Of a DNA stretch of 64,000 nt, positions 3,041 to 64,000 are shown one piece after another. The notes under the pieces were generated by a model. It had not been told where the DNA came from. It did no database searches and saw only the letters and a program-made list of their open reading frames with translations. The stretch lies in sequence record MW822011; one strand, 5' to 3'. Position 1 is the first letter of the stretch. Each line of letters begins with the position of its first letter. Both the position numbers and the translations under genes were made by a program. The stretch comes from Shigella phage TB004.

Positions 3041-3737
<697 letters not shown>

Positions 3738-3740
3738 TTT

Positions 3741-3781
3741 CACAAAGTTATTTACACGGGGTTTTAGTTGTGATACTATTA
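3741..3781 (+). promoter_or_regulatory. early promoter upstream of ipI
   Basis: TTTACA -35-like element and GATACTAT -10 region shared with other early promoters in window. Confidence 0.45.
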
Positions 3782-3815
3782 CCCTATCAAAACAAATGAG
3801 TGATTGGAGAATAAA

Positions 3816-4088
3816 ATGAAAACATTTAAAGAATTTATCAATGAAGCTACTTTTAACGAAAAAGTAAAAATTAGTAAAGCTGTCAAGACTTTGATTGCTG
3901 ACATCAATTACCTATATGATATTGATTTAACTGACTATGTAACAGTTGGTAACAAACGTAACTTTTTCGTGTTTGACATCTCTGAACTTGACCAGAATCA
4001 AATTAACAACATTGAGCGTTTTGCTAATGATAAGGGTCTTCGTCATGAGTCAGCGGGTTATAAAAAATACGCAATTTATTTAAAATGA
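3816..4088 (+). CDS. ipI: internal protein I (capsid-targeted, IPI-like)
   Basis: N-terminal capsid targeting sequence MKTFKEFINE; locus after 57B. Confidence 0.7.
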   Translation: MKTFKEFINEATFNEKVKISKAVKTLIADINYLYDIDLTDYVTVGNKRNFFVFDISELDQNQINNIERFANDKGLRHESAGYKKYAIYLK

Positions 4089-4119
4089 GTTTACTTTTAA
4101 ATAGGGTTGTGGTACTATT
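4089..4119 (+). promoter_or_regulatory. early promoter
   Basis: GTTTAC -35 and GGTACTAT -10. Confidence 0.45.
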
Positions 4120-4148
4120 ATCTCATCAAAATTAATTAGGAAAATAAA

Positions 4149-4457
4149 ATGAAAACATTTAAAGAATTTATCAATGAAGCGGCTGCGCCAAAGACATTCG
4201 TTATTAATACTCAGGCGAGTCTTGATGATGAATACGCGGAGGCAATTCTGAAGTCACTTGCTAAGAACGGTGTTGAAGTAATTGCTTCGGACTTTAAGAA
4301 AGGGGCTTCCGAGATGTTTATTTCTATAACTAAAGGATCTAAAGCTAAGATTAAATCATCATTCGGAGTTGCTCGTACCGATCAAATCGACAATCATGAC
4401 TTTAAACAAACTGGTGCTAAACGGCAGAATACAATTGCATCACGCGGAATAAAATAG
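4149..4457 (+). CDS. second capsid-targeted internal-protein-like ORF
   Basis: 102 aa starting MKTFKEFINEA (CTS); own promoter. Confidence 0.6.
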   Translation: MKTFKEFINEAAAPKTFVINTQASLDDEYAEAILKSLAKNGVEVIASDFKKGASEMFISITKGSKAKIKSSFGVARTDQIDNHDFKQTGAKRQNTIASRGIK

Positions 4458-4469
4458 TTTATAAAAACA

Positions 4470-4499
4470 GTTTACTTTTAGATAGGGTAGTGATACTAT
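4470..4499 (+). promoter_or_regulatory. early promoter
   Basis: GTTTAC -35, GATACTAT -10. Confidence 0.45.
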
Positions 4500-4527
4500 T
4501 ACCCTATCAACTACAGAGGAGAATAAA

Positions 4528-4713
4528 ATGAAACGTTGTGAATTAATTCGAAATGTTGCTATTGCAATTTCTGCTTCCGCTTTTAGTTTTTCAATGTTTG
4601 TTGGATTTATATGCGGATTATTAACTACAGCAGAAAATGTGTTTTCACTTGTAGTAGCATTTTTAATTGGTTTAATTGCTATCGTTATGGATAAAATTTC
4701 TAAAGGTGAATAG
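4528..4713 (+). CDS. small hydrophobic membrane protein
   Basis: 61-aa ORF with GGAG RBS, mostly hydrophobic. Confidence 0.45.
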   Translation: MKRCELIRNVAIAISASAFSFSMFVGFICGLLTTAENVFSLVVAFLIGLIAIVMDKISKGE

Positions 4714-12476: not shown

Positions 12477-13044
12477 ATGAAAACCTATAAAGAATTTATC
12501 GCTGGAAAAGGCCAAAGGCATTAATAAAGATGAGTGGACTTACCGAGGAAACGGCTTTGACCCTAAAACAGCCCCTATTGAACGATACTTAGCTACAAAA
12601 GCTTCCGACTTTAAAGCTTTCGCTTGGGAAGGACTTCGCTGGCGTACCGATCTAAATATTGAAGTTGATGGGCTTAAATTTGGCCATATTCAAGATGTTG
12701 TTGCTAGTAACTTGGATGCAGCTTTTGTTAAAGCTGACGGTGACCTTCGTCGCTGGAATTTAAAACTATTCTCTAAACAGAAAGGCCCGGTGTTTGTGCC
12801 TAAAGCTGGTAAATGGGTTATTGATAATAAATTAGCTAAGGCTGTCAACTACGCTGGTCTTGAATTCGCCAAGCATAAATCATCATGGAAAGGTCTTGAT
12901 GCAATGGCCTTCCGTAAAGAATTTGCTGATGTTATGGCTAAAGGCGGCTTTAAGGCAGAAATAGATACCTCTAAAGGTACGTTTAAAGACGCTAATGTTC
13001 AGTACGCTTACGCTGTTGCTAATGCAGCCCGTGGTAATTCTTAA
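12477..13044 (+). pseudogene. ipIII: internal protein III gene, frameshifted after the capsid targeting sequence
   Basis: MKTYKEFIA then stop after 15 codons; remainder of IPIII-like sequence open in +1 frame; one extra G near 12504. Confidence 0.55.
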
Positions 13045-13152: not shown

Positions 13153-13455
13153 ATGAAAACATATCAAGAATTTATTACTGAAGCGCGAGTGAGTGCAGGT
13201 AAATTAGAAGCCGCTATAAATAAAAAGGCCCATTCATTTCACGATTTGTCCGATAAAGACCGTAAGAAACTTGTAAGCCTTTATATTGACAAAGAGCGTA
13301 TTCTCGCTCTTCCTGGCGCTAATGAAGGTAAACAGGCCAAGCCTTTGAATGCTGTCGAAAAGAAAATTGATAACTTTGCTTCTAAATTCGGTATGTCTAT
13401 GGATGACCTTCAGCAAGCGGCTATCGAAGCAGCTAAAGTAATTAAAGGTAAATAA
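13153..13455 (+). CDS. ipII: internal protein II
   Basis: 100 aa with CTS MKTYQEFITE; matches recalled T4 IPII. Confidence 0.8.
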   Translation: MKTYQEFITEARVSAGKLEAAINKKAHSFHDLSDKDRKKLVSLYIDKERILALPGANEGKQAKPLNAVEKKIDNFASKFGMSMDDLQQAAIEAAKVIKGK

Positions 13456-13512: not shown

Positions 13513-13877
13513 ATGACTCGTATTAATTTGACTTTAGTATCTGAACTTGCTGATCAACATTTAATCGCGGAATACCATGAATTGCCGCGTGTTTTTGATA
13601 TAATTCGTAAACACGCGGCAAATGGAAAAATGATTATAATCCATGCAAATCAGCTATTAAGTTGAGTCAACAACGACTCGATGAAAAAATTTTAATGAAG
13701 CCGCATTGGTATAAGTATTACGGCAAAAATATTTACATTCAAATAACATGGGAACAAGCTGGACCTCATGATTCTGTGAGGGATTCCCGCCAACCTGTAA
13801 TAAGGTCGAGCCCAAGTGCGGTAATGGGTAAATACAGAAATGGACAATTCATGCGCCACGGAATGGCCCAAATTTAG
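13513..13877 (+). pseudogene. denV: denV (endonuclease V) remnant with internal out-of-frame deletion
   Basis: N-terminal 39 aa match T4 EndoV, then frame breaks; C-terminal ...SQQRLDEKI..WYKYYGK.IY in another frame. Confidence 0.6.
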
Positions 13878-20046: not shown

Positions 20047-20207
20047 CATTAGTCTCCTTCGGGAGTCCTTTTTTCATTTTGCCAGTTTACTTTCCAAAAT
20101 GAGTATGGTATAATAAAACTATCTTATAGATCGGGAGTCCTTTTTTCATTTTGCCAGTTTACTTTCCAAAATGAGTATGGTATAATAAAACTATCTTATA
20201 GAGGAGA
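20047..20207. repeat. terminator hairpin plus tandemly duplicated 72-bp early-promoter cassette
   Basis: unit TCGGGAGTCCTTTTTTCATTTTGCCAGTTTAC...TATAAT... at 20059-20130 and 20131-20202; identical copy at 63929-64000. Confidence 0.8.
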
Positions 20208-60176: not shown

Positions 60177-60341
60177 ATGAAAACATATAAAGAATTTATT
60201 AAAGAAGATATGGTCGCTGGAGATTCAGGTGGTAATCCTGAAAATATCTCCACTGGAACAACGTCAGGCGCTGTAGTAAATAAAGGTCCTGAACAGATTC
60301 CTAAAAAGAAAAAAGAGGAATCTAAAGAAAAAGAAGAGTAA
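60177..60341 (+). CDS. small capsid-targeted peptide (CTS-bearing)
   Basis: 54 aa starting MKTYKEFIKE, same CTS as internal proteins; GAGG RBS; Lys/Glu-rich tail. Confidence 0.45.
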   Translation: MKTYKEFIKEDMVAGDSGGNPENISTGTTSGAVVNKGPEQIPKKKKEESKEKEE

Positions 60342-63920: not shown

Positions 63921-64000
63921 GGACTCCTTCGGGAGTCCTTTTTTCATTTTGCCAGTTTACTTTCCAAAATGAGTATGGTATAATAAAACTATCTTATAGA
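63921..64000. repeat. terminator hairpin plus early-promoter cassette, third copy of 20059-20130 unit
   Basis: GGACTCC-TTCG-GGAGTCC hairpin, T6, then identical 72-bp promoter unit ending at window edge. Confidence 0.8.

Follow-up and report, generated by a model that had tools for sequence, protein, structure and literature searches.

A ten-residue leader shared by two unrelated small proteins most likely brings them into the head of a T-even phage for injection with its DNA

Introduction

Close described counterparts of the genes reported here include those of the phage T4 internal proteins. IPI* (PDB 2JUB), IpII and IpIII are injected inhibitors of GmrSD Type IV restriction enzymes (PMC9026906, PMC12373910). 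They resemble the Ip9 and Ip7 proteins treated below in being small, in having a leader at the N-terminus that includes a gp21 site, in their non-essential accessory character and in being encoded at one of the two internal-protein loci, which run from 57B to the tRNA genes and from e to denV. Ip1, Ip2 and Ip3 each inhibit one different GmrSD enzyme, with no cross-protection, and the authors of that work proposed that all proteins of both internal-protein loci target GmrSD variants (PMC12373910). As to delivery, the first 10 residues of IpIII are enough to bring even foreign proteins into the head (Mullaney and Black 1996, via PMC9026906). Targeting depends on leader residues 4 and 7 and processing on residues 8 and 10, and gp21 cleavage follows L/I-x-E (PMC9026906).

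Outside T4, the leader-bearing protein Bas37_0260 of phage KarlGJung, encoded at the ipI locus, inhibits McrBC (preprint, bioRxiv 10.1101/2025.11.20.689424). It shares with the genes described here the locus, a two-gene arrangement in place of ipI and a similar leader, MKTYQEFIAE, but its mature domain is unrelated to those of Ip9 and Ip7. We rejected the possibility that Bas37_0260 is itself Ip7 or Ip9, because the 77-aa sequence belongs to a different family in our survey; the protein is not encoded in the DNA analysed here.

The Ip9 and Ip7 genes of phages RB32, RB15, K3 and T2 owe their names to Repoila, Tetart, Bouet and Krisch (EMBO J 1994), who are also credited with describing cassette shuffling and polymorphism at this locus. 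The RefSeq record of RB32 (NC_008515) gives the order 57B-Ip5-Ip9-Ip7-tRNA.4 and annotates both Ip9 and Ip7 as "flanked by 43 bp direct repeat", so the core of what we describe has stood in public annotation for years: the ip9–ip7 pair, the polymorphism of the locus and the flanking direct repeat are already known. A parallel exists in the PeSL cassettes of RB49/phi1-type phages, which likewise consist of a repeated promoter and inverted-repeat unit (Arbiol et al. 2010, PMC2839356). PeSL units and the T-even cassette alike flank small accessory genes and provide homology for modular shuffling, but the T-even elements associated with internal-protein genes have T4 early promoters and weaker, more AT-rich stems, and the same authors regard them as analogs, not homologs, of PeSLs (PMC2839356).

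Results

Two open reading frames share a leader

The DNA analysed, hereafter the window, is a 64,000-nucleotide stretch of Shigella phage TB004 (record MW822011). Two consecutive open reading frames on its + strand, at 3816–4088 (90 aa) and 4149–4457 (102 aa), are both open and both begin MKTFKEFINEA. An earlier note on this DNA had claimed that the same 30-nt cassette opens the two frames, and this is exactly so: ATGAAAACATTTAAAGAATTTATCAATGAA, encoding MKTFKEFINE, is found at 3816–3845 and at 4149–4178 with 0 mismatches in both copies, whereas 100 dinucleotide-preserving shuffles of the sequence gave zero copies and none is expected by chance. The full direct repeat extends to 42 nt (copy 1, 3806–3847; copy 2, 4139–4180; both + strand), of which 41 are identical (98%), and it runs from the Shine–Dalgarno sequence GGAG through the ATG and the 10 leader codons into the beginning of the Ala11 codon. 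When the two proteins are compared by BLASTP, the alignment is limited to residues 1–11 and no similarity follows Ala11; judged by this comparison, their mature parts are unrelated to each other.

The leader agrees with the determinants described for T4. In both proteins the aromatic targeting residues are F4 and F7, and residues 8–10 read I-N-E, a gp21 site of the L/I-x-E type, followed by A. The first protein holds one more I-x-E match, ISE at residue 57, inside its folded domain. Removal of the leader is predicted to leave mature proteins of 80 aa (9.3 kDa, pI 8.2) and 92 aa (9.9 kDa, pI 9.65).

A third copy of ATGAAAACATTTAAAGAATTTATCAATGAA, with 27 of 30 nt identical (3 mismatches), lies far from both internal-protein loci at 60177, the start of gene 61.1 (60177–60341, 54 aa; "uncharacterized protein 61.1" in T4). 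Its product opens with the leader-like MKTYKEFIKE, followed by D, and its other 44 residues are of low complexity and rich in Lys and Glu. To go by this N-terminus, the gene 61.1 product could be another head-targeted peptide.

The two genes are homologs of ip9 and ip7

The product of 3816–4088 is 94.4% identical to RB32 Ip9 and 95% identical to RB15 Ip9 (UniProt Q38376). That of 4149–4457 is 100% identical to RB32 Ip7 and 99% identical to the T2 protein, and it also matches CC31 Ip7. Both fall into PHROG families described as "internal head protein" (phrog_7673 for the first, E = 1e-54; phrog_2667 for the second, E = 2e-41). We are all but certain that the two frames are ip9 and ip7. The proposal that they are internal-protein genes is thereby supported, both by homology to the named T-even proteins Ip9 and Ip7 and by a leader that fits the capsid-targeting and gp21 rules.

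The surrounding gene order is gene 1 (dNMP kinase), 57A, 57B, ip9, ip7, trna.4, trna.3, trna.2 and then ten tRNA genes. Gene 57B (3282–3737, + strand; annotated 57B in RB32) and trna.4 (4528–4713, + strand), which encodes a 61-aa predicted membrane protein, are the conserved left and right borders of the internal-protein locus, and ip9 and ip7 lie between them. Over its full length, the 57B–trna.3 stretch is ~97–98% identical to Salmonella phage Lv5cm, Escherichia phages SYGD1 and HMD-9 and others. Relatives that are ~97% identical across the ip9–ip7 locus are complete Tequatrovirus genomes, and the window is Tequatrovirus DNA. The earlier note had placed the pair at the ipI locus. Its position in the 57B-to-tRNA "ipI" locus stands, but the first gene is ip9, not ipI, and IpI is absent from the window; for this comparison the true IpI was fixed through PDB 2JUB, together with the UFV-AREG1 copy. 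By T4 gene order, the gp21/gp22 head-gene cluster presumably lies outside the 64-kb window.

Gene 57B, which goes by the name "RNA ligase" in many phage records to this day, matches the Pfam family Acb1 (PF23474), an anti-CBASS phosphodiesterase (E = 2.6e-60). A counter-defence gene thus lies directly upstream of the internal-protein cassettes.

Each gene is preceded by a promoter-like cassette

A T4 early-promoter-like motif lies upstream of each gene, on the + strand. The promoter scan placed that of ip9 at about 3750–3779 (ATTTAC-N17-TACTAT, with a TG-extended −10) and that of ip7 at 4089–4118 (GTTTAC-N18-TACTAT). The + strand of the window has 16 copies of the pattern [GT]TTTAC-N16-18-TAYWAT and the − strand has none, against ~1.5 expected for the two strands combined, and nearly all copies stand just upstream of a Shine–Dalgarno sequence and an ATG. 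This strand bias and proximity to start sites fit a real, strand-specific promoter class. The suggestion that each frame has its own early promoter is supported at the level of the sequence motif, from which the putative ip9 and ip7 promoters are assigned. One early-promoter sequence (GTTTACTTTCCAAAATGAGTATGGTATAAT then AAAACTATCTTATAGA) recurs in identical form at 20085–20114, 20157–20186 and 63955–63984, two copies spaced 72 bp apart and the third 44 kb off.

A third promoter cassette precedes trna.4 (4470–4508, + strand) and carries an intact hairpin around its −10 (4481–4508) with a perfect 12-bp stem (−16.8 kcal/mol, z = −2.6). The trna.4 gene has the promoter, Shine–Dalgarno and ATGAAA parts of the cassette, without the leader. 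Upstream of ip9, a weak inverted repeat GGGGT...ACCCT (3758–3785, + strand) overlaps the −10 region, and the segment 3738–3805 folds at −13.9 kcal/mol (z = −1.97). The inverted repeat upstream of ip7 is degenerate, broken in that the left arm of one variant stands beside the right arm of another, and the segment 4086–4140 folds at just −2.3 kcal/mol. A strong stem is thus found in one of the three cassettes of the window, that of trna.4, and the stems are A/T-rich. Two pairs of arm variants, ATAGGGTA/TACCCTAT and ATGAGGTA/TACCTCAT, have the appearance of compensatory changes, although the covariation count was no better than in shuffles. We found no terminator-like site, defined as a hairpin with a U-run, in these regions, including between ip9 and ip7. 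The arrangement therefore departs from a PeSL, which combines a Sigma-70-like promoter with a G/C-rich terminating stem-loop: a promoter motif is present and terminator-like sites are absent.

Alignment of 14 intergenic regions of the locus, from the window, RB32, T2 and UFV-AREG1, revealed a common block of ~80 bp that runs from GTTTAC through GTGATACTAT and TACCCTATC to GGAGAATAAAATGAAA and is conserved from the −35 to ATGAAA. The block also precedes trna.4, which does not encode an internal protein, and it has mosaic variants (for example, AAAATTAATTAGGAAAATAAA versus AACTACTGAGGAGAATAAA). The leader of ip9 itself differs by phage, reading MKTYQEFISE in RB32, MKTYQEFINE in UFV-AREG1 and MKTFKEFINE, the ip7 type, in the window. 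We infer that this variation is the kind of product expected of exchange or conversion within the cassette.

The locus varies in gene number and kind

The earlier note had called the ipI locus hypervariable, and our comparison across T-even phages agrees. We surveyed 39 loci, comprising 36 fetched from viral contigs via 57B, two annotated loci and the window. They contain 71 leader-bearing open reading frames, with 0–4 such genes per locus among those examined, and the mature parts fall into 20 families without detectable mutual similarity. The leader consensus, drawn from the 70 ten-residue leaders of the 71 frames, is M-K-[TS]-[YF]-x-E-F-[IL]-x-E, with A or S as the usual next residue. Of the 39 loci, 11 carry an Ip9-family gene and 10 an Ip7-family gene; five have both, once in reverse order. 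Because the two families pair elsewhere with other families, they assort independently.

Individual phages illustrate the differences. RB32 has the same order from Ip9 through Ip7 to trna.4 as the window, and the same repeat, with an extra Ip5 in front. T2 carries Ip5-Ip7 and lacks Ip9, in contrast to the Ip9-Ip7 of the window, and UFV-AREG1 carries IpI-Ip9-Ip7 and a fourth leader-bearing gene, whereas the window is without IpI. The contiguous 57B-ip9-ip7-trna.4 block is nonetheless found, at 88–99% nucleotide identity, in at least 26 of the 30 phage records listed.

Two sets of variants were seen among the relatives. The 77-aa "ip7 protein" of Escherichia phage OLB35 (P0017) is a chimera, with an N-terminal half similar to Ip7 (about 91% over 48% of the query) and a C-terminal part similar to Ip9 residues 56–90 (80%); from its sequence, it looks like a deletion fusion of adjacent ip7 and ip9 genes. 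Several members of the Ip7 90%-identity cluster are 134–136 aa long rather than 102 aa (for example, QWY90506.1 of phage 132), which could stem from a start called further upstream or from a fusion.

The second internal-protein locus has an intact ipII and a broken ipIII

Further internal-protein genes lie at the second locus, after the lysozyme gene e. An intact ipII occupies 13153–13455; we rejected its reading as an ipI homolog, because cluster names show ipII and IpI is absent. No homologs of IpI, Ip4 or Ip5 were found in the window. The ipIII homolog (12478–13044) is frameshifted. Compared with phage vB_VIPECOOM01, it has an 11-bp deletion (TGAAGCTTCTG) at leader codons 9–12, which removes the Glu10 codon and shifts the frame to MKTYKEFIAGKGQRH and a stop, leaving the remainder in another frame up to 13044. 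The ipIII of the window is either a pseudogene or the result of an assembly error.

Nearby, denV (endonuclease V, 13513–13877) has, by comparison with vB_VIPECOOM01, an internal deletion of ~187 bp that is bordered by short AATGG repeats and leaves a 50-aa N-terminal open reading frame and a C-terminal remnant. In the best 12 records listed, denV matches in at least two pieces, as expected if those records are without the deletion.

Broken ipIII indicates that decay of internal-protein genes does happen in this phage, which raises the question of whether ip9 or ip7 is likewise a decaying remnant that keeps its leader and is no longer made or packaged. We regard this as highly improbable for either gene. 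Both frames are intact, each has a Shine–Dalgarno sequence and a promoter motif, homologs occur in 193 (Ip9) and 283 (Ip7) phage records, and dN/dS lies between 0.04 and 0.14.

Ip9 and Ip7 are predicted alpha/beta domains under purifying selection

In diverged pairs, dN/dS is 0.04 for Ip9 and 0.07–0.14 for Ip7, with dS saturated in some pairs; by this measure, the mature regions of both proteins are under purifying selection. AlphaFold2 (AF2) predicts both as small alpha/beta domains. The model of mature Ip9, of high confidence (pLDDT 91.3), has the order alpha-beta-beta-alpha-beta-beta, and that of mature Ip7, of moderate confidence (pLDDT 73.7), has a beta-alpha-beta-beta-alpha-beta core followed by a low-confidence, Lys/Arg-rich C-terminal tail (residues 77–92). 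Structural comparison of the predicted domains gave no informative match, searches with Ip9 and Ip7 against Pfam gave sub-threshold noise only and those against PDB sequence profiles gave nothing significant. We likewise found no sequence or fold similarity of either protein to the characterised inhibitors Ip1, Ip2, Ip3 and Bas37_0260.

The basic character of the predicted mature proteins (pI 8.2 and 9.65), the Lys/Arg-rich tail of Ip7 and the presence of ~1000 internal-protein molecules embedded in the DNA of the T4 head (PMC3012670) would also suit mainly structural cargo, that is, proteins that neutralise DNA charge or aid packaging or ejection with no specific host target. We consider this improbable for Ip9 and Ip7. 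A locus with 0–4 genes and 20 unrelated families in the survey fits arms-race cargo better, selection on both domains is strong and fold-preserving, and the T4 internal-protein genes are non-essential, each tested one having a specific target (PMC12373910).

The Ip9 domain occurs outside T-even phages

A complete HMMER search with mature Ip7, covering 1.84 billion representative proteins, returned only three clusters, all T4-like internal proteins. The Ip7 domain is thus confined to T4-like phages and has no distant relatives to learn from. The mature Ip9 domain, by contrast, extends beyond T-even phages, with leaderless stand-alone homologs in the siphoviruses Kagunavirus and Seuratvirus at 44–51% identity. 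Examples are a 72-aa gene of Kagunavirus UTEC10 (L041, 2504–2722; 51% identical) and a 74-aa gene of Seuratvirus KS_A3 (L042, 2492–2716; 45% identical), both leaderless and both matching phrog_7673. The KS_A3 copy is annotated "internal head protein", the description that phrog_7673 carries; on these leaderless homologs, the label is probably an over-transferred annotation.

In Kuttervirus aagejoakim (L043, 494–3586), the last ~80 residues of a 755-aa protein (phrog_3867) that starts MAIPSFLNFLEES are Ip9-like. The two genes that follow start MKPFIEYFKEQ (189 aa, putative structural) and MKGFPDFLKEA (57 aa), and the N-termini MKPFIEYFKE and MKGFPDFLKE are leader-like and finish in x-E. Vi01-like phages have a gene for a prohead protease of the Peptidase_U9 (gp21) family (PMC3220722). 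Going by these N-termini, the Kuttervirus cluster may be an internal-protein-type locus in Ackermannviridae. A tentative and rather doubtful extension of these findings is that the effector domain of Ip9 is no T-even invention but a portable module of phages, used leaderless in Kagunavirus and Seuratvirus and as a C-terminal domain in Kuttervirus.

Discussion

Because MKTFKEFINE followed by A agrees with all of the T4 leader rules, binding to the core, cleavage after Glu10, retention in the head and co-injection would be expected for both Ip9 and Ip7. On the strength of these rules, we think it very probable that the two proteins are packaged, processed and injected. A search of the literature on Ip7 or Ip9 function, virion proteomics or injection gave nothing relevant.

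The mechanism that we propose treats each gene as one cassette, in which a T4 early-type promoter, whose −10 usually lies within an inverted repeat, is followed by a Shine–Dalgarno sequence, the 30-nt MKTFKEFINE leader and an unrelated effector domain. Through its leader, each protein would attach while nascent to the prohead's gp22 scaffolding core, and the gp21 prohead protease would cut after Glu10, between I-N-E and A. The mature basic proteins, of ~9.3 and 9.9 kDa, would then remain in the head beside the DNA and be injected with it. [quoted passage not shown] The near-identical promoter-to-leader sequence before every gene would offer short homology for recombination, and relatives would for that reason differ in the number and kind of these genes at the locus.

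Inhibition of Type IV enzymes is common to the four internal proteins that have been characterised, which sets an evenly balanced prior expectation for each of Ip7 and Ip9, and we put the chance that a Type IV restriction enzyme is the target of either one at about even. T2 is restricted by GmrSD-ECOR21 and GmrSD-ECOR17 (PMC12373910) and yet carries Ip7, so Ip7 does not cover those two enzymes.

That observation also bears on a rival account, in which Ip9, Ip7 or both are injected counter-defence proteins aimed at something other than a Type IV nuclease, such as another immediate-early defence or a host function. The leaderless Ip9 homologs of non-T-even phages leave room for such a target, and the lineages that carry the Ip9 domain, as a leaderless protein in Kagunavirus and Seuratvirus or at the C-terminus of the 755-aa Kuttervirus protein, stand apart from T-even phages, which suggests a target not tied to glucosyl-hmC. 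The anti-CBASS enzyme encoded next door, 57B, also counts in favour of the rival account. Modified DNA has, however, been reported for Seuratvirus and Kuttervirus, and this keeps a Type IV target of Ip9 compatible with the distribution of the domain. The four characterised leader-bearing proteins all inhibit Type IV enzymes (PMC12373910; 10.1101/2025.11.20.689424), and GmrSD-family enzymes are very diverse, some of them promiscuous. On balance, we judge a target outside the Type IV class to be possible but rather unlikely. The account that we favour overall, and consider likely, is that of ip9 and ip7 cassettes at the 57B–trna.4 locus whose products are delivered by the leader and have Type IV inhibition as their most likely role.

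Should the Ip9 domain prove to be a portable module, it would be directed at a defence or host factor that several phage lineages have in common rather than at a glucosyl-hmC-specific nuclease, and T4-type leader-based head delivery would extend to Ackermannviridae. The repertoire of this phage, with Ip9, Ip7 and IpII present, IpI absent and ipIII broken, leads to a testable expectation as to which E. coli strains with GmrSD are open to infection by it and which are not. Ip7 and Ip9 are common orphan members of the internal-protein class, and, since every characterised member (Ip1, Ip2, Ip3 and Bas37_0260) inhibits a Type IV enzyme, they are good candidates for target screens.
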